Shown here in pieces: positions 1 to 8,045 of a stretch of 10,494 bases of DNA (its first letter is position 1; each line of letters starts with the position of its first letter). This stretch comes from a virus: the UHGV virus genome UHGV-1956501; one strand, written 5' to 3'. The translations under genes were made by a program, and so were the position numbers. Under the pieces are notes generated by a model that did no database searches, had not been told where the DNA came from, and saw only the letters and a program-made list of their open reading frames with translations.

Positions 1-96
1 AGTATATTCTACATAAGTTAAGTATATGTACTTAGTACCATAAGTACTAGATCTTTTATTTTTTATTATTTAGTTATTTTAGTTATATTCTTTATG

Positions 97-177
97 TGTC
101 CGTATCACGGACAGTTGGTGTCCGTATTACGGACAGATGTGTCCGCGTGACGGACAGTAGTGTCCGTATCACGGACA
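97..177. repeat. Four tandem 17-bp palindromes TGTCCG-N5-CGGACA (97-113, 119-135, 140-156, 161-177), phased 21-22 bp; candidate operator/iteron array
   Basis: Read directly: TGTCCGtatcaCGGACA, TGTCCGtattaCGGACA, TGTCCGcgtgaCGGACA, TGTCCGtatcaCGGACA. Arms are perfect reverse complements; start-to-start spacing 22, 21, 21 bp (about two helical turns). Sits beside an AT-rich tract (40-95) with TAGTTAT direct repeats. Confidence 0.85.
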
Positions 178-252
178 GTTAATAGTATCTGTTCTAGAGC
201 GAACATAAAACATACGAATCCTTATAGTACAGATATTTAAGTTTTTACTGGT

Positions 253-603
253 CTAACCAGTTGTTGACATTCGAATAACCTCTTCTGGTGGCAAAACTTT
301 GGAAAATGTGCATCTTTTACCTCTCCCTTGTGTGGATATTTCAACCACTCCTGCACATTCTAAAGTTTTAACGCACGCTGCTGCTTTTGTTTTCTTTATC
401 CCAACATCTGCTGCAATTTTCCTTGTGCTGGGTGTGAAGCGTGAATTTCCTCCAAGCTTGTACCAGTTGTGCAGGTAGCAGTATACGATCTTGTCATATA
501 AGTCAAGAACAACAACCTCCCCAGTTGTGTCATTCAAAACTTTTGACATAGACAGTATTTCAAGGGGGACTTTAAGATATAGCAGCTTATCCCCATCTTT
601 CAT
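253..603 (-). CDS. Hypothetical small protein, possible helix-turn-helix DNA-binding protein
   Basis: 116-aa ORF with ATG start and AGGAG Shine-Dalgarno just upstream on the minus strand; no competing plus-strand ORF. Segment FTPSTRKIAADVGIKKTKAAACVKTLECAGVV looks HTH-like. Function is inference only. Confidence 0.55.
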   Translation of the reverse strand: MKDGDKLLYLKVPLEILSMSKVLNDTTGEVVVLDLYDKIVYCYLHNWYKLGGNSRFTPSTRKIAADVGIKKTKAAACVKTLECAGVVEISTQGRGKRCTFSKVLPPEEVIRMSTTG

Positions 604-650
604 ATCTCCTGATTCTCCTTGTGTGGCAATTTTCTTTAAAATAGCAGGGA

Positions 651-1226
651 TTACTCCCCGCTGTCAATAGCAAGACTCATTGCAATACGGTATGCCTCTT
701 CTAATGGTAAGAGTCTCCCCCACACATCCCAACCGACATCAAACTGCCTGCCAAACAACTGCTGTGTGGTTCCGTGAGCATGACCGAACAGTTGGACTGA
801 TCCGTGAGGCTTTCTGTTCCACTTTGCAAACTGGTAATGGCTCATACAGATCAAATTCTTGTTGTGGCGAAGCTCGTAATAATCTACAACCTCATGACCG
901 AACTCTTTCATAATTCTGACAGTCGTCCTTGTGTCATGGTTGCCACGAACAAGAATAATATGCCCGTTCAACATATTTAGAATATCTGGAAGTAAGTTGT
1001 TGATATTCTTATCATTAGTGCACGCAATATCTCCCAGGTGGAACACAGTGTCTGCAGGTGACACAACAGAGTTCCACTCGGTGATGATTCCCGCATTCAT
1101 ACTGTCAAGATTGTGATCATATTGAGATCTGTGTTTTTGACATGAATCAAACTCCATGACCCGCTGTTGGAGAAAGTGTGTGTCGCTTGTTACAAAGTAT
1201 TTTAATGCAGATGACCTAGTAGACAA
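651..1226 (-). CDS. Calcineurin-like metallophosphoesterase
   Basis: Ordered metallophosphoesterase motifs in the translation: SDTHF (D-x-H), HLGDIA (GD), VRGNHD (GNHD), later His, FGHAHG (GH-x-H). Longest ORF starts at TTG (1224-1226) with no in-frame ATG before motif I, so the start codon is uncertain. Confidence 0.75.
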   Translation of the reverse strand: MSTRSSALKYFVTSDTHFLQQRVMEFDSCQKHRSQYDHNLDSMNAGIITEWNSVVSPADTVFHLGDIACTNDKNINNLLPDILNMLNGHIILVRGNHDTRTTVRIMKEFGHEVVDYYELRHNKNLICMSHYQFAKWNRKPHGSVQLFGHAHGTTQQLFGRQFDVGWDVWGRLLPLEEAYRIAMSLAIDSGE

Positions 1227-2106
1227 AGGTCTTGTAACCAGTCGGTATTATCCAGATCTTGGATTAAAGATCTATAAATATGCCAGAAAAGTATTCTACA
1301 ACAATCTGTGGCATTTGTCTCCGCGTTTACTGGAGTGCCGAGGTATTGTTGTTGGCAATGAGGGGAATGTTGTGGCATGGCCTTTCACAAAAGTATTCAA
1401 CTTAGGAGAAAACTCCACCAACCTACCGGACAGTAAACTTGTTACTGCGGTAGAGAAAAAGAACGGATTCCTTGGTGTGGTGTCATCTCATAAAGGTGAA
1501 CTATTGTTCTCAACAACCGGGTCTCTTGATTCTCCATATTGTAACCTTGCAAAGGAAACCATCCAGGAGCAATGTGGTAATTTAGATCTTATCAAGAAGG
1601 TTATGGGCAATGAAAATATGACATTCATGTTTGAAATTTGTCACCCCTCAGATCCGCATATTGTTCAGGAAGATCATGGCGCATATTTGATAGGTTGCAG
1701 ATATAATGATTCTGGAATAATACTACCAGAAGCAGCTTTAGATGGGATTGCCAAATACCTTGGTGCAAAACGTCCTCACACTGTGCGTGAAATTCCGTTC
1801 AGTTATGCAAAAGAATTAGCTGCAGAAACAAGAGGTGAAGGGTATATGATTCGTAAGCCTTACTACCCTTATGATCTGCAGCTGAAGATTAAGTCTCCAT
1901 ACTATCTGGCACGGAAGGCCGTAATGAGGGGTAAAGCTTGGAAGATTTGGGATGATGATATCTTTAAACGTGTTGACGAAGAGTTTTACGGCATGGTAAA
2001 CTTCATTCGCAACAACTACACAGAGGATGTATGGAACTGCCTCCTGGAGCAGGAACGCCGTGAGATACTTGACTACTATTTCCACAACGAGGACTATATG
2101 CAATGA
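1156..2106 (+). CDS. rnlA: ATP-dependent RNA ligase, T4 Rnl1 (RnlA)-like, with short C-terminal region
   Basis: Nucleotidyltransferase motifs: motif I K-x-N-G (EKKNGFLGVV), motif IV EGYMIRK, motif V LKIKSPYY. N-terminal segments KYFNADDL, LLECRGI and KVFNLGEN match the T4 Rnl1 N-terminus as recalled from memory. ATG 1156 overlaps the divergent phosphoesterase 5' end; GTG 1180 is an alternative start. Confidence 0.75.
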   Translation: MTRCWRKCVSLVTKYFNADDLVDKGLVTSRYYPDLGLKIYKYARKVFYNNLWHLSPRLLECRGIVVGNEGNVVAWPFTKVFNLGENSTNLPDSKLVTAVEKKNGFLGVVSSHKGELLFSTTGSLDSPYCNLAKETIQEQCGNLDLIKKVMGNENMTFMFEICHPSDPHIVQEDHGAYLIGCRYNDSGIILPEAALDGIAKYLGAKRPHTVREIPFSYAKELAAETRGEGYMIRKPYYPYDLQLKIKSPYYLARKAVMRGKAWKIWDDDIFKRVDEEFYGMVNFIRNNYTEDVWNCLLEQERREILDYYFHNEDYMQ

Positions 2107-2453
2107 AGAAGTTGATTGTGTGGCTGGATGACTTGAGAGACCCGTCAAATTATGGGCTCCCAGACGCTATTTGGCTAAAGAATTCCTCCGAGTTTATGGA
2201 TTTTATTAACGATAATAGAAAGCTCTACAGACGCGTTTCTGAGTGGCATATGGACAACGACCTTGGAGAGGTATTAGAAGGGTACGATTGCCTATCTATG
2301 TTGGAGGAAAAATTTGTATTTGGTAAGCCTCCTGTAGTTGACAACGTGAAGATTTTCGTGCATACTTCTAACCCATCAGCTGCTCGTAAATTCATGCTTG
2401 CAGCTGACTCGTTTAAAAAGTTTGGAATAGAGATTAAACAAAACATCTACTGA
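2103..2453 (+). CDS. Hypothetical protein (116 aa); possible CheY-like receiver / flavodoxin-like fold
   Basis: ATG overlaps the upstream stop (ATGA, 2103-2106), suggesting translational coupling. Acidic residues and a Thr/Lys pair at CheY-like spacing (D9 D10, D51/D53, T88, K105/K106); fold assignment is speculative. Confidence 0.6.
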   Translation: MKKLIVWLDDLRDPSNYGLPDAIWLKNSSEFMDFINDNRKLYRRVSEWHMDNDLGEVLEGYDCLSMLEEKFVFGKPPVVDNVKIFVHTSNPSAARKFMLAADSFKKFGIEIKQNIY

Positions 2454-2461
2454 GGACACTT

Positions 2462-3223
2462 ATGCGACGACTTATTATTATCTCCGGTGCTGGTTTGAGC
2501 GCTGAATCTGGTATTCCCACTTTCCGATCTGGTAGCACTGCAATGTGGGAGAATTTCAGCATCGATGAGGTGTGCAACATTCACACCTTTGCCAAGAACT
2601 ACTATAAGGTGCATGACTTTTACAATGCACGTCGTGTAGCTCTAGGCAGTGTTGAGCCTAACCTTGCACATCTTCGGATCGCTGAGTGGTATTCCCGCTG
2701 GTCTGGTCGTGTGATCAACATTACCACCAATGTGGATGATTTGCTGGAGCGTGCTGGTGTAAAACATGAAGATATTTTACATGTCCACGGGTATTTGCCA
2801 GAAATAGTCTATGAGGACGATGAAGGAAGTAACGTCATTAAGGACATTGGATACTCTGAGGTAGATGCAGAAAAGTATACCTGGGTTAAGCCTAATGTGG
2901 TGTTCTTCGGAGAAGTAGCTCCGAAGTATACAGACATGTACGACCTGTTGACTTCCCTTACGAGTAATGATATGGTTATCCTTGTAGGGTGTTCCAACAC
3001 AGTTATCAATTTTAACTGGGAGCTATTCCCTGCCTGCAATAAGGGAACCAAGCTGCTGATCGTTAACAAATACGACTCACAGCATCTAGAGGAGAATGGC
3101 ATTTCACGTAGTGATATTTACCAATATGAGGATCGCGGCATCCCAGTTTGGTTTAACGGGGCGGTTGATGCTTTCTCTGATAAAACATTCATTGAGACCG
3201 TAGAAAACTTTATGGAACTTTAA
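2462..3223 (+). CDS. Sir2-family protein (sirtuin-like NAD-dependent deacylase / ADP-ribosyltransferase / NADase), no zinc ribbon
   Basis: Sirtuin Rossmann motifs: ISGAGLSAESGIPTFRS (GAG-x-S-x-x-SGIP-x-FR), ITTNVDDL (TQN-x-D-x-L-like), LHVHG (catalytic His-Gly), VVFFGE (FGE), ILVGCSNTV. No CxxC...CxxC zinc-binding module is present. Confidence 0.85.
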   Translation: MRRLIIISGAGLSAESGIPTFRSGSTAMWENFSIDEVCNIHTFAKNYYKVHDFYNARRVALGSVEPNLAHLRIAEWYSRWSGRVINITTNVDDLLERAGVKHEDILHVHGYLPEIVYEDDEGSNVIKDIGYSEVDAEKYTWVKPNVVFFGEVAPKYTDMYDLLTSLTSNDMVILVGCSNTVINFNWELFPACNKGTKLLIVNKYDSQHLEENGISRSDIYQYEDRGIPVWFNGAVDAFSDKTFIETVENFMEL

Positions 3224-3236
3224 AAGGAGACCTTTA

Positions 3237-3950
3237 ATGCTGAATACCAAATTAATTGACAACCTGGAAAAACTGTCCCAACCTGAAAACTACCTTTGGT
3301 CTGCCAACTGGGTGGAAAACTGGAACCGTGTGGCAGCTAAAGTGAAAAAATCATACACACCATTCGAATTACAGCTTAGCTTCATTGAGGAAGAGTTCAA
3401 TGAAGTTTTGGAAGAGCTGGAGAAAGGTGATGGTGGAGATCACCTGCTAAAAGAGGCCTGCGATCTTCACGTTGTCACAAGTTATGCCGCTTATCTTGTT
3501 AATGATAATCACGAAAAGTGGTCAAACCTGTTTGATAATCCACGAGGCCTTAAGTTCAAGATCGGTGAGTTCTATGATACCCTGATCGCTGCGAAAAACA
3601 CCTCCAAGCAAAAAGCGTCCGCTTACCGCTTAGCAGAGTTGTCAACAGCTTTGCTGTTCCAGCTTCGCGGCGATGTGTGCGGGATGATGCGTAAGGTTCT
3701 CAAATCGAATGACAGCAAGTTTGCACGGGTCAACCATCTACGGTATTCACACGGTGCCAGTGCAGATATGCCTGCTGAACAACTCATCGAGTTGGAGATT
3801 AAAGATCTTGAGCGGCGCTTTGATGGTCGATATGAAGGTTTTGTTGCTAAGGAAGAATTCTACAACGGTAATAAAGTTATCATATTCCTTGACAGTAAAG
3901 GTAAGATCATGAAGCCTTCGAGCTTCAAGGATGTAACAGAGTATATTTAA
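3237..3950 (+). CDS. Hypothetical protein; possible all-alpha NTP pyrophosphohydrolase (MazG/HisE-like) N-terminal domain
   Basis: AGGAG Shine-Dalgarno (3225-3229) before ATG 3237. Acidic helix pattern SFIEEEFNEVLEELEKGDGGDHLLKEACDLHVV resembles the E-x-x-E...E-x-x-D metal-binding helices of MazG-like enzymes; assignment is tentative. Confidence 0.5.
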   Translation: MLNTKLIDNLEKLSQPENYLWSANWVENWNRVAAKVKKSYTPFELQLSFIEEEFNEVLEELEKGDGGDHLLKEACDLHVVTSYAAYLVNDNHEKWSNLFDNPRGLKFKIGEFYDTLIAAKNTSKQKASAYRLAELSTALLFQLRGDVCGMMRKVLKSNDSKFARVNHLRYSHGASADMPAEQLIELEIKDLERRFDGRYEGFVAKEEFYNGNKVIIFLDSKGKIMKPSSFKDVTEYI

Positions 3951-3956
3951 CAACAT

Positions 3957-3985
3957 AGCCGGGATTACCCGGCTTTACTTGTTGT
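3957..3985 (+). terminator. Putative rho-independent terminator
   Basis: GC-rich hairpin AGCCGGG-atta-CCCGGCT (7-bp stem, 4-nt loop, 3957-3974) followed by T-rich TTACTTGTTGT, directly after the 3237..3950 stop. Confidence 0.5.
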
Positions 3986-4013
3986 GGAAAGTATGCAAGT
4001 GAGGAAGATAGTT

Positions 4014-4322
4014 ATGTACAAGCACTCTAGAGATCTTGAAAACGATGCTGTGTTTGGGGATCAGATGAAAGAGTTGGTTAAACTCATAGGCAGGATAGAG
4101 GATAAGTTTGACACTAAAATCTACATCGACAGCAAAGTATTCAACCACAAAATATGGACAAATCTGTGTGTTGGACTACATGGAGATAAAGATGTGGTAA
4201 ATTTAGTTGTAATTAAGTTCATAGTGTGGCAGAATAAAACTATAAATTATTACGATCCACACCTACTTGTTTACCCGATAAAAGACCTATTAGATAAGGA
4301 GGACTGCAATGCCGTTATTTAA
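4014..4322 (+). CDS. Hypothetical protein
   Basis: Longest ORF starts at GTG 3984; in-frame ATGs at 3993 and 4014. ATG 4014 has the best Shine-Dalgarno (GAGGAAG, 4001-4007). No recognisable motifs. Confidence 0.45.
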   Translation: MYKHSRDLENDAVFGDQMKELVKLIGRIEDKFDTKIYIDSKVFNHKIWTNLCVGLHGDKDVVNLVVIKFIVWQNKTINYYDPHLLVYPIKDLLDKEDCNAVI

Positions 4323-4578
4323 TCTTGCTAAACCTGTAGAAGCACACCAGTTTGACGGAAGCTCTTCATCAGTATCTGATCTGCAACGGTGGATTGATAC
4401 AGGTGTGTTTACATCGTCACCTGTTCGGACCAGAGATCTTCGTCGCATGTGTGAGCTTGTAGAGCCGTTTGGTAACCTAGTCTTGTACCAGGGAGATTGG
4501 TTAGTTGACTTTATGGGAGACTGGTTGGTAATGAGTAAAGAAGAGATGTTTAAAATTTTTAAGGAAGAGGCCGAGTAA
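4309..4578 (+). CDS. Hypothetical protein (89 aa)
   Basis: Strong Shine-Dalgarno AAGGAGG (4296-4302) 6 nt before ATG 4309; stop overlaps the downstream start (TAATG). No recognisable motifs. Confidence 0.55.
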   Translation: MPLFNLAKPVEAHQFDGSSSSVSDLQRWIDTGVFTSSPVRTRDLRRMCELVEPFGNLVLYQGDWLVDFMGDWLVMSKEEMFKIFKEEAE

Positions 4579-5861
4579 TGCATCAAATCAAAACAACACT
4601 GTACGCACTGAATAAAGATGGCAGCTACCAACAGTGGAAAGTATTCACGGATGGTGATAAGGTTATCGTAGAGTTTGGCAAGCTTGATGGTAAACTGCAA
4701 TACAAAGAGACGATCTGCACACCTAAGAACGTTGGTCGCGCCAATGAAACTACAGCTGAGCAACAGGCCGAGCTGGAAGCGATCAGTAAGTGGGAAAAAC
4801 AGGTCCGACTTGGGTACGTGGAGAGTATGGAAGATTGTGAGCAAGGTGTTGATCTTCTACCCATGTTGGTGCATGACTACCTGAAGCGTGGCAAGGCACT
4901 TAAATTACCTTGCTGGATCTTGCGTAAGTTAGATGGCCTTCGTCTACTTGTTGTTTTCCAGAATGGTGAGCCTAAATTTATTTCCCGTGGTAATAAGTCC
5001 TACCCTATTCAAGGAAAGCTTCTGGAGCAACTTCGCTCTTTCCACCTAACCACCGGGATTAAACAGCTCGACGGAGAGCTCTATATTCATGGTCTTCCTC
5101 TGCAGAAAATAGTGTCTCTTGCTAAACGGTGGCGCACACAGGAAGAAATTCAGGCCGAGATCGATAAAGACTACAAGGCAGATAAAAAACGCCGTCAGGC
5201 TGCGATTAAGGCAGGTTTAGCAACATACAAAAACTTCAACAAGATGGACATTCCTGTTGATGTTGAGCCTGTTCGTGATGATTTGCGTTACGGAGGGTAC
5301 TGCAGCTACGATCTGGAGTATCACATTTTTGATATTCCTAGCGACAAGGTGTGGTGGGATCCAGAAACAGAGTCTGGACGCTGCAAGGATCTTATGGATG
5401 CAGAGGATACCGTTACCACTCTGATGCTTGACCATATCAAGGTTGTTGACGCAGAGCTTGCGTACACAGTTGATCATTGCGAAGAATCTGTTGGTATATT
5501 CATGTCCGAAGGATATGAAGGTACTATCATGCGTAATTTCTGCGGTAAATACGAGTACGGTCAGCGAACATCTGAAGCATTGAAATGGAAAAAGTTCAAC
5601 GACGCAGAGGTGAAAGTTATTGACGTTGAGAAAGATAAGAATGACGAAGGTGTTCTTATCTGTGTTGACAAGGAAGGTGTTGTTGTTAAAATGAAGATGA
5701 AAGGTACGCACGAGGAGCGTAGCTATGACAGGATGCAGGAAATGATCGGAAAGTTCGTCACCTTCAAATATCAAGCAAGGACAGAAGACAACAACTACCA
5801 ATTCCCTGTCGGTATCTGCGTCCGAAATGTTAACCCAGATACTTGGGAGGTTCTGGAATGA
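4578..5861 (+). CDS. ATP-dependent DNA ligase with about 115-aa N-terminal extension
   Basis: Covalent nucleotidyltransferase motifs in order: motif I ILRKLDGLRLLVV (K-x-D-G-x-R) with downstream ISRGNK, motif III LDGELYIHG, motif IV EGTIMRN, motif V LKWKKF, C-terminal OB-like region. ATG overlaps upstream stop (TAATG). Confidence 0.8.
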   Translation: MHQIKTTLYALNKDGSYQQWKVFTDGDKVIVEFGKLDGKLQYKETICTPKNVGRANETTAEQQAELEAISKWEKQVRLGYVESMEDCEQGVDLLPMLVHDYLKRGKALKLPCWILRKLDGLRLLVVFQNGEPKFISRGNKSYPIQGKLLEQLRSFHLTTGIKQLDGELYIHGLPLQKIVSLAKRWRTQEEIQAEIDKDYKADKKRRQAAIKAGLATYKNFNKMDIPVDVEPVRDDLRYGGYCSYDLEYHIFDIPSDKVWWDPETESGRCKDLMDAEDTVTTLMLDHIKVVDAELAYTVDHCEESVGIFMSEGYEGTIMRNFCGKYEYGQRTSEALKWKKFNDAEVKVIDVEKDKNDEGVLICVDKEGVVVKMKMKGTHEERSYDRMQEMIGKFVTFKYQARTEDNNYQFPVGICVRNVNPDTWEVLE

Positions 5862-5987: not shown

Positions 5988-6485
5988 ATGAAACTTGATA
6001 AAAATGTTCAACGAAAAGCTTTCTTGGATCTTATTGGCTGGGCAGAGGGAACAACAACCCCCCCTGCCACCAAATGTGGAGGATACGATGTTGTAGCATA
6101 CGGGATGGACGGAAAACCTGAAATCTTTACAGATTTTTCTACGCACCCTTTTGCAAACGGTCGCCCTGGTAAAGTGTTTAACTCAAAAGGGCAAAGAACT
6201 ACAGCCTGCGGTAAATATCAATTTCTTGTCAAATACTGGGAACACTACAAAAAACAGCTTAAGTTGCCGGATTTTGGACCAGACAGTCAGGATAAGTGGG
6301 CGATCCAGTTGATCAGGGAACGTAAAGCACTTGAAGATATAGATAACGGTCATATTAAATCTGCTATACGTAAGACCTCAAATATTTGGGCTTCGTTCCC
6401 CTACAACCAGTACGACCAAAATCCAAAAACCATTGACAAGTTGCTTAAGAAATTTGTAGAGTTTGGAGGTGTTGTTCTGGATTAA
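5988..6485 (+). CDS. Endolysin, lambda R-type lytic transglycosylase
   Basis: Near-collinear matches to lambda R as recalled: QRKAFLD, GWAEGT, GYDV, FTDFS-HP, GKYQF, YWEHYKKQLKLPDFGPDSQD, IRERKAL, SNIWASFP, FGG. GGAGA Shine-Dalgarno 8 nt before ATG. Confidence 0.9.
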   Translation: MKLDKNVQRKAFLDLIGWAEGTTTPPATKCGGYDVVAYGMDGKPEIFTDFSTHPFANGRPGKVFNSKGQRTTACGKYQFLVKYWEHYKKQLKLPDFGPDSQDKWAIQLIRERKALEDIDNGHIKSAIRKTSNIWASFPYNQYDQNPKTIDKLLKKFVEFGGVVLD

Positions 6486-6539: not shown

Positions 6540-7301
6540 ATGACGATACATTTCTTTTTCAATGATCACTACCCTTATTGGTACAAGGATGGTGATCTAA
6601 TCTTTTGGAAACCTGGCTGCAGTAGGAATGGAAATAGGGCTGGACACTACAACAAAAAGACTGGATATTTCCAAGTGTACAATAAGCTGACAAATGTTAA
6701 ACGTGGCAGACATAGGGAAATTTTTGACATGTTTTACGGATGTGTCACAGATACTTGGCATATTGATCATATTATCTCTAAGAAAAATTCTACTAACGGA
6801 GTGCCTGTAGACAAGATAGAAAACCTTCAAATGTTGAAGCCTTGGGATAACTACTGTAAGAGAGCCTTGGAAAATGTGCAAAGCAATAACACCTCTACAG
6901 TGACTGGTGTGGTATGGCTGAAAAGAGAGGGTAAGTGGAGGGCAAGTAGAAGGATAAATAGGGTAAATGTTAGGTTGGGAGATTTTGACACTTTCGAAGA
7001 GGCTAAGTCTAGGGTTGAATGGTCAATAGCCAACCCGGAAGAGGCTTTAAAGATAGTTCCAAACCCGCACAAGAATAATATCCTGCCAGGTATTGATTGG
7101 TCTAAGAAAGATACCTGTTGGAGGGCACGAGATAACAAAGGAAGAAACTTAAGGTGCTTCAACGACAGGAAGTGGCTAAACCCCTGGTGGGAGGCAGTTT
7201 GTGCAAGAAAGTCTTGGGAAGTAAACTGTCTCTACGGAGGAATGTCACTAACTGAGTGGAAGTTATCCAGAGGCTATCCAAGACCTTGTGTTGAGGATTG
7301 A
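6540..7301 (+). CDS. HNH homing endonuclease with AP2-type DNA-binding domain (free-standing)
   Basis: HNH core WHIDHIISKKNSTNGVPVDKIENLQMLKPWDN (H...N...N). Downstream AP2-like segment TGVVWLKREGKWRASRRINRVNVRLGDFDTFEEAKSRV. Inserted between endolysin and the next lysis-region gene, typical of mobile phage homing endonucleases. Confidence 0.85.
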   Translation: MTIHFFFNDHYPYWYKDGDLIFWKPGCSRNGNRAGHYNKKTGYFQVYNKLTNVKRGRHREIFDMFYGCVTDTWHIDHIISKKNSTNGVPVDKIENLQMLKPWDNYCKRALENVQSNNTSTVTGVVWLKREGKWRASRRINRVNVRLGDFDTFEEAKSRVEWSIANPEEALKIVPNPHKNNILPGIDWSKKDTCWRARDNKGRNLRCFNDRKWLNPWWEAVCARKSWEVNCLYGGMSLTEWKLSRGYPRPCVED

Positions 7302-7580: not shown

Positions 7581-8045
7581 GTGGAAGACGGACGTTTAAT
7601 GAAGTCTGAACGCAGGCTTATTGTGCAACTGATCCCAGAAACAGCTTGGTATAATAACCTCCGAAACGCTGTAAAGAAGAGTGAGTGGGATAAGATCCGC
7701 AAGAAGTGCTATAAAGAAGCCAACTACACCTGTGAGGTGTGCGGCGGTAAAGGCAGCAAACACCCAGTGGAGTGTCATGAACTTTACACTTTCGAAGAGG
7801 GAGTGATCCGGCTTGTCGGACTGATAGCGTTGTGCCCAGATTGTCACACATCTGTGCATCCTGGGTTAGCAAATATCCGTGGAAAGTATGCTCAGGCAGT
7901 TAGTCAGTTGGCTAAGGTGAATAAGATCACCAAGGGTATGGCAGAGGCGTATTACCGAGACTGCTTTGCAGAGTGGCGTGAGCTTAGTAAAGTTCCAGAA
8001 TGGAAGACTGACTTTTCGTGGATAGAGGGTTACCTTGATGGCTAA
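7581..8045 (+). CDS. Zinc-binding His-Me-finger (HNH / EndoVII / NinG-like) protein, putative nuclease
   Basis: AGGAGG Shine-Dalgarno (7571-7576) 4 nt before GTG 7581. Motif CEVCGG-x6-HPVECHE-x-LCPDCH-x-x-x-H resembles the CxxC...H...CxxC-H arrangement of beta-beta-alpha-Me nucleases. Nuclease activity is inferred. Confidence 0.55.
   Translation: MEDGRLMKSERRLIVQLIPETAWYNNLRNAVKKSEWDKIRKKCYKEANYTCEVCGGKGSKHPVECHELYTFEEGVIRLVGLIALCPDCHTSVHPGLANIRGKYAQAVSQLAKVNKITKGMAEAYYRDCFAEWRELSKVPEWKTDFSWIEGYLDG

Follow-up and report, generated by a model that had tools for sequence, protein, structure and literature searches.

What does a protein that resembles a two-component receiver do in a phage, between an RNA ligase and a sirtuin? 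We addressed this question for a gene at positions 2103..2453 (+ strand, ATG start) of a 10,494-nucleotide stretch of the virus genome UHGV-1956501 (the window). A first-pass annotation, made from the sequence alone, had described a 116-amino-acid open reading frame (ORF) here whose acidic, Thr and Lys residues are spaced as in the receiver CheY; the coordinates and length of this ORF are borne out. We conclude that the encoded protein is an ordinary member of cREC, a named, published and widespread phage family, and that it represents a divergent receiver fold, pared down to a minimum and no longer part of two-component signalling. As to its function, we lean towards a small Asp-based phosphoesterase that heals RNA ends or processes an ADP-ribose cyclic phosphate.

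The cREC gene, its family and its fold

The start codon of cREC is preceded, at a distance of 9 nucleotides, by a GAGGA Shine-Dalgarno sequence, and it shares the sequence ATGA with the stop codon of the RNA ligase gene upstream. The downstream Sir2 gene begins 8 nucleotides 3' of the cREC stop codon, and its own GAGGA Shine-Dalgarno sequence spans that stop codon. The ratio of nonsynonymous to synonymous polymorphism (pN/pS) in cREC is 0.25 and 0.08 in comparison with two close relatives (L001 and L002, respectively). Based on the pN/pS ratios, the Shine-Dalgarno sequence and the overlap of start and stop codons, we conclude that the ORF is a real gene under purifying selection.

The protein matches the Pfam family cREC_REC (PF20274, "cyclic-phosphate processing receiver domain") with 55 bits against a cut-off of 27 (E 1.3e-14), over residues 5–98, equivalent to profile positions 2–83 of 88. 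In PHROGs it is assigned to phrog_1479, for which the function is given as unknown. A word-indexed search returned 56 homologues, with PF20274 pre-annotated on 54/54 full-length ones. A profile search of 1.84 billion cluster representatives returned 1,447 homologues at E ≤ 0.001, of which 107 reached E ≤ 1e-10; with few exceptions these are stand-alone proteins of 100–125 residues. By tblastn, 357 phage records contain a homologue, and in at least one of those in GenBank (PQ505080.1) the gene already bears the name cREC. Seven very long proteins (P0075, P0078, P0095, P0110, P0157, P0187 and P0202; 1,077–3,483 amino acids) match cREC profile positions ~56–106 only, each in 5–12 repeated stretches, and are probably a repeat-protein artefact.

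Iyer et al. (2021; PMC7824862) defined the family as cRec, a divergent receiver that never occurs together with histidine kinases and whose links are to enzymes of nicotinamide adenine dinucleotide (NAD) and ADP-ribose metabolism, to RNA ligases and to WYL domains. A prototype neighbourhood, that of "Escherichia phage V5", contains a sirtuin, a T4-like tRNA ligase, cREC, a nucleotide kinase and MazG, and sometimes includes a calcineurin-like phosphoesterase (Iyer et al., 2022; PMC9503650). The find is thus already known, the family being named in Pfam and the rV5 neighbourhood published, and the earlier expectation that a receiver-like protein coupled to an RNA ligase and Sir2 would be unusual for a phage must be given up in view of the 357 phage records and the published association of ligase, cREC and sirtuin. 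The same annotation had held that a clear match to a different known family would count against it; such a match exists, to cREC, but cREC is itself receiver-derived.

An AlphaFold model built on 42 homologues (pLDDT 93.5, pTM 0.87) predicts a Rossmannoid, receiver-like fold, and structure comparison of this model gave receivers as the best matches. The receiver fold suggested earlier from residue spacing is therefore right. The modelled strands span residues 4–8, 23–25, 45–51, 82–88 and 109–115, and the helices residues 14–17 (short), 28–35, 41–44 (short), 60–73, 91–99 and 101–105. The (beta-alpha)5 architecture of receivers is incomplete: the five strands are present, helix 1 is reduced to a four-residue turn (14–17), and helix 5 is absent, with only Y116 remaining after strand 5. 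Typical family members are 100–105 amino acids long, and most end after helix 4, without strand 5. The rV5-type subfamily has a C-terminal extension that forms the fifth strand (109–115) and that holds a basic residue, R113 in most members and K112 in the clade of the window.

Conservation was computed over 119 diverse cREC relatives, and the family invariants fall on the three loops from which receivers form their active site. D9, D10, D51 and G60 are 100% conserved, position 88 is always T or S, and position 52 is always N or H. Conservation reaches 98% for L54, 97% for R12, D53, H87 and N90, 96% for P14, 94% for E68 and 92% for G55, and position 96 is K or R in 68% of the relatives. The signature residues of the window protein are D9 D10 R12 P14 / D51 N52 D53 L54 G55 / G60 / E68 / H87 T88 N90 P91, and the motif positions quoted in the first-pass annotation are all correct (D9/D10 in KKLIVWLDDLRD, D51-N52-D53 in HMDNDLG, T88 in VHTSNP and K105/K106 in SFKKF). 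In the model, D9/D10, D51 and T88 lie at the C-terminal ends of strands 1, 3 and 4, as they do in receivers (for active-site geometry, see PMC12632262).

The proposed CheY-like spacing thus stands at four of five positions, namely the acidic pair, the central Asp and the Thr, but fails at the Lys. At ~18–19% of the relatives each, K105 and K106 are no more than the commonest or second-commonest residue at their positions. Both are placed where helix 4 ends, ahead of strand 5, whereas the receiver Lys comes after strand 5, and in the model they sit at the far end of the sheet, as seen from the active site. A global hhalign alignment paired K105 with K109 of CheY; this pairing was of the lowest confidence and contradicts the secondary structure of the model, and we rejected it. 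The strand-5 region is gapped in 18–57% of the relatives and has no residue above 18%; because most family members end after helix 4, there is no family-wide equivalent of the Lys. Since a conserved Lys after strand 5 is lacking, cREC is a pseudo-receiver as defined in PMC12632262. R12, P14, D53, H87, N90 and E68 set cREC (PF20274) apart as a separate family, and the extra invariants R12, D53, H87 and N90 look catalytic rather than regulatory.

Profile comparisons place cREC at a distance from canonical receivers. No match of the window protein to the Response_reg hidden Markov model (HMM) was listed even at the reporting threshold of E ≤ 10, and one relative (P0083) scores 15.6 bits against the Response_reg cut-off of 30.2. 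Comparison of a 70-sequence cREC profile with nine E. coli receivers (NC_000913.3) by hhalign gave a probability of ~1%, which is not significant, with DD, D, G and T in register; against the single CheY sequence the probability was 0.2% and the match was out of register. D9/D10, D51 and T88 were also in register in hmmsearch alignments to receivers, though these were not significant. Searches of PDB sequences with two cREC profiles returned chance matches to acyl carrier protein and ferritin, and response regulators only below threshold (E 0.7–1.4).

Genomic partners and the proposed role of cREC

We compared 61 viral loci, seeking neighbours within 6 kb of cREC. Two loci (L001 and L002) have the gene order of the window, with a kinase gene upstream on the opposite strand and no gene of the module missing. 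Six more (L003–L008) have Metallophos, Rnl1, kinase, Sir2 and DNA ligase genes near cREC, and in a further two (L011 and L012) Metallophos, Rnl1 and kinase genes are near cREC and Sir2 was not found. The module is therefore kept in L001–L008 and in part in L011/L012; its order is shuffled, with cREC always beside healing or sealing enzymes. Searches by phmmer with the neighbour proteins of the window found nothing around the distant viral homologues (L014–L062). Single viral neighbour clusters match HAD_SAK_2, Thg1, NADAR, NAPRTase, NAD synthase and Metallophos.

Bacterial homologues were sought with a degenerate DNA pattern in one genome per prokaryotic species, which yielded 63 loci (L070–L132), mostly from gut Clostridia, with core-type cREC genes of 90–105 amino acids. 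Neighbouring ORFs at 62 of these loci were clustered, and one representative per cluster was annotated. A cluster found in 10/62 loci has a representative that matches a WYL-WCX regulator, and the representatives of smaller clusters match YpsA-SLOG (3 loci), HAD_SAK_2 (3 loci) and Metallophos (2 loci). In 10 bacterial loci a recurring ORF runs antisense to cREC; it was treated as a shadow ORF, because at least the representative of its cluster overlaps the cREC gene. A phage-type integrase gene lies near cREC in at least two bacterial loci, and some of the bacterial loci may be prophages or defence islands. Together, the viral and bacterial contexts independently reproduce the published cREC network. 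The steadiest partners of cREC are end-processing enzymes, and its association with Sir2 is facultative.

Iyer et al. (2021; PMC7824862) predicted that cRec opens cyclic ADP-ribose or 2',3'-cyclic phosphates, a prediction to which the initial guess of a "phospho- or nucleotide-binding" protein came close, and Iyer et al. (2022; PMC9503650) proposed that the sirtuin acts like KptA on 2'-phosphates. We adopt the substrate assignment from this published work; the HAD-like reading of D51-x-D53 comes from the present analysis. In the mechanism that we propose, a divalent cation would be bound by D9 and D10, as happens in receivers. Attack of D51 on the phosphate would give an acyl-phosphate, and D53 would act as acid/base, like the second Asp of the HAD DxD motif. 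T88 and N90, together with a basic residue (R12 or K/R96), would replace the missing receiver Lys and hold the phosphoryl oxygens. The likely substrate would be a 2',3'-cyclic or terminal 2'/3'-phosphate on a tRNA cut by a host anticodon nuclease, after which the ligase would reseal the tRNA. Alternatively, the substrate may be ADP-ribose 1'',2''-cyclic phosphate released by the sirtuin acting like Tpt1/KptA. The PF20274 match, the loop invariants, the neighbourhoods rich in end-processing enzymes and the literature together support an Asp-based phosphoesterase, an assignment that we make with moderate confidence.

Within this assignment we mildly prefer RNA ends over an ADP-ribose product, because cREC is translationally coupled to the ligase gene and persists in loci without Sir2 within 6 kb. 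The kinase of rV5-like phages, a protein of 136 residues, has above-threshold Pfam matches only to P-loop kinase families (AAA_33 and Zeta_toxin), and no phosphatase domain was detected in it with Pfam. Healing of 3' ends would therefore have to come from elsewhere, with cREC and the metallophosphoesterase as the candidates. The best-surviving alternative, which we nevertheless consider unlikely, is that cREC is a phosphoesterase for a small NAD-derived product of Sir2 (ADP-ribose cyclic phosphate or products like O-acyl-ADP-ribose) instead of RNA ends, and that the MazG-like enzyme finishes the breakdown. Consistent with this possibility, cREC, Sir2 and the MazG-like gene follow one another in a single unit, fusions of cREC to Nudix domains are frequent (PMC9503650), and NADAR, NAPRTase, NAD synthase and SLOG genes are neighbours elsewhere. 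By contrast, four loci (L009, L011, L012 and L013) keep cREC with no Sir2 within 6 kb, and the gene to which cREC is translationally coupled is that of the RNA ligase, not Sir2.

Several observations weigh against an Asp-based phosphoesterase. The cREC family was described as experimentally uncharacterised (PMC9503650), and our literature search for experimental work on cREC found none, and nothing newer than that study. Iyer et al. call the cREC site metal-independent, whereas the HAD-like reading assumes a metal site. Pfam annotation of 148 viral neighbour clusters revealed no dominant partner, and for distant viral homologues most of the neighbours have no recognisable function. Lastly, in two related 150-kb phages (L009 and L013, around 5995–11000) cREC is accompanied by Metallophos, DNA ligase and MazG-like genes, with no Rnl1, kinase or Sir2 gene within 6 kb, indicating that the link of cREC to RNA ligation and to the sirtuin is not obligatory in cis.

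A different possibility is that the acidic pocket binds a host immune or damage signal without turnover and so blunts defence, in the manner of small phage sponge proteins; 2',3'-cyclic nucleotides or cyclic ADP-ribose isomers would be the ligands. cREC is small, stand-alone, abundant in phages and located among counter-defence genes; its bacterial relatives often adjoin WYL-type ligand-sensing regulators and SLOG proteins, and the published context is one of NAD and ADP-ribose signalling (PMC7824862). A non-catalytic binder is nonetheless improbable in our view, since the invariant set (three Asp, His, Asn, Arg and Thr/Ser) is typical of a phosphoryl-transfer site, and since the closest partners in the clade of the window are RNA-end enzymes rather than signal-degrading enzymes. 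We give somewhat less credence still to a counter-defence role in which cREC would be no simple hydrolase: it would trap a phosphate-bearing host signal, or the cyclic-phosphate end of a cleaved tRNA, or would take it up covalently on D51. The captured signal could, on that doubtful account, be a 2',3'-cyclic nucleotide or a cyclic ADP-ribose isomer. If true, this would be a receiver put to new use outside two-component signalling, serving either as a sensor or sponge or as a covalent intermediate in RNA-end healing.

Least probable is a stand-alone canonical CheY-like receiver that a host kinase or acetyl phosphate would phosphorylate on D51, and that would either switch or regulate the ligase/Sir2 module or divert host two-component signalling as a decoy. 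The receiver fold and the invariant DD, D and T/S speak for it, as does the autophosphorylation by small donors that such residues allow in real receivers (PMC12632262), but a conserved Lys is lacking, with K105/K106 variable and misplaced, and the absence of helix 5, and in most of the family of strand 5 as well, leaves cREC without the usual alpha4-beta5-alpha5 output surface. The Response_reg and hhalign comparisons found no significant similarity, the extra invariants look catalytic, and no histidine kinase or histidine phosphotransfer (Hpt) protein was seen in any viral or bacterial cREC locus examined. The canonical CheY-type phospho-acceptor or regulator envisaged at first is therefore not supported.

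The value of the find is mainly practical, as cREC is a widespread family with a biochemical role that is only predicted. D9, D10, R12, D51, D53, H87, T88 and N90 constitute a direct plan for mutagenesis. If Asp-based hydrolysis of cyclic phosphates on a receiver scaffold is true, it would link receiver and HAD chemistry, and it would fill the missing 3'-end-healing step in phages whose kinase has no phosphatase domain.

The window locus and loss of the kinase gene

The window derives from an rV5-like coliphage (Vequintavirus). Its identity to deposited phages, among them Campylobacter phage C2, naam and rV5_ev147, reaches 97.6%, and that to phage RudolfGeigy is 97.0%; rV5-like coliphages infect E. 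coli K-12, according to the host field of BASEL-collection phage records. The ligase upstream of cREC (1195..2106, + strand) is of the Rnl1 type, like T4 RNA ligase 1 (PF09511, E 1.6e-14; phrog_562, E 8.7e-66). Downstream of cREC lies the Sir2-family (sirtuin) gene (2462..3223, + strand; PF02146, E 1e-27; phrog_2162, E 2e-110). In the sirtuin, the NAD-binding motif (GAGxS...GIPxFR) and the catalytic histidine (HG) are present and CxxC pairs are not, so that the usual zinc-ribbon cysteines appear to be absent; this fits the "distinct clade of sirtuins" of PMC9503650.

The last gene of the unit (3237..3950, + strand) encodes a nucleotide pyrophosphohydrolase like those of the MazG superfamily (phrog_671, E 5.8e-22), and its homologue in L009 matches PF01503 PRA-PH. 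Directly 3' of this gene, a consensus scan identified a terminator-like, G+C-rich hairpin of 7 pairs, 6 of them G-C (3957..3974, both strands), formed by the inverted repeat AGCCGGGATTACCCGGCT and followed by a T-containing tail on the + strand. The hairpin is likely to be a terminator marking the end of the ligase-cREC-Sir2-MazG transcription unit. A gene for a calcineurin-like metallophosphoesterase (651..1202, − strand; PF00149/PF12850; phrog_547, E 1.7e-50) reads away from the ligase operon, and downstream of the cREC unit there is a gene for an ATP-dependent DNA ligase. Farther along, downstream of an endolysin-like gene (5988–6485), are two ORFs: one (6540–7301) is annotated in a relative as a putative homing endonuclease, and the other (7581–8045) has a Cys/His-rich motif (CEVCG...CHE...CPDCH).

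All 117 matching database phages carry ~545 bp between the phosphoesterase and ligase genes that the window lacks. In relatives this stretch (L001 3048–3592) contains the gene for the 136-amino-acid P-loop polynucleotide kinase and a divergent promoter region. Comparison with these relatives places the deletion junction at 1195..1202, at an 8-bp microhomology ('aagtattt') that exists because the phosphoesterase and the ligase both begin M-K-Y-F, on opposite strands. The deletion took the native ATG of both genes: the ligase frame is still open from an upstream ATG at 1156, and only a TTG at 1226 is left as a possible start for the phosphoesterase. The same deletion is present in a metagenome scaffold (L135; ENA ERZ28603063 KARL12-1_SAMN01760939 scaffold_840), positions 1–4905 of which are 100% identical to window positions 17..4921. 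Two other contigs (L133, of 136 kb, and L134) encode an identical cREC protein and have kept the kinase. We therefore regard the deletion as one variant present in a natural population, or possibly as an artefact of assembly. In a weaker variant of the capture explanation, a natural loss of the kinase would show that the module works without 5'-end phosphorylation.

Comparison with known systems

With canonical receivers (PF00072, for example E. coli CheY), cREC has in common the DD that follows strand 1 and the residues in which strands 3 and 4 end, Asp and Thr/Ser, respectively. Unlike them, it has no conserved Lys after strand 5, no helix 5, a four-residue turn for helix 1 and no HMM-level similarity, and it is never found with a histidine kinase. 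It adds an invariant R two residues after the DD, D two residues after the central Asp, H immediately before the Thr and N two residues after it.

HAD phosphatases, such as the 3'-phosphatase domain of T4 polynucleotide kinase-phosphatase, use a D-x-D motif in which the first Asp is the nucleophile and the second the acid/base. cREC likewise has a D-x-D motif, a Thr/Ser and an acidic pair suited to Mg2+, and the role proposed for it beside an Rnl1 ligase, healing of RNA 3' ends, is that of T4 polynucleotide kinase-phosphatase. The cREC D-x-D follows strand 3, however, and not strand 1, where the HAD fold has its motif I, DxDx(T/V), and cap, squiggle and flap are absent; the best structural matches, as noted above, are receivers. 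The resemblance to HAD enzymes would thus be a mechanistic analogy of the "works like" kind only. With 2H phosphoesterases cREC shares a predicted job, the opening of 2',3'- or 1'',2''-cyclic phosphates in RNA repair and ADP-ribose processing (PMC9503650). Those enzymes have an unrelated fold and two H-x-T/S motifs, in contrast to the single H87-T88 and the Asp residues of cREC, and a 2H-like reading of H87-T88 was dropped for these reasons.

The closest likeness is to the cREC family itself (PF20274; PMC7824862, PMC9503650). The fifth strand (109–115) that the rV5 type adds is absent from typical members of 100–105 amino acids, and the window genome has no kinase gene, unlike the phage V5 neighbourhood. 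In all else, the window protein has the HMM match, the same Asp residues, a stand-alone form of ~110 amino acids, no associated histidine kinase and the gene neighbourhood described for Escherichia phage V5, and nothing essential differs.

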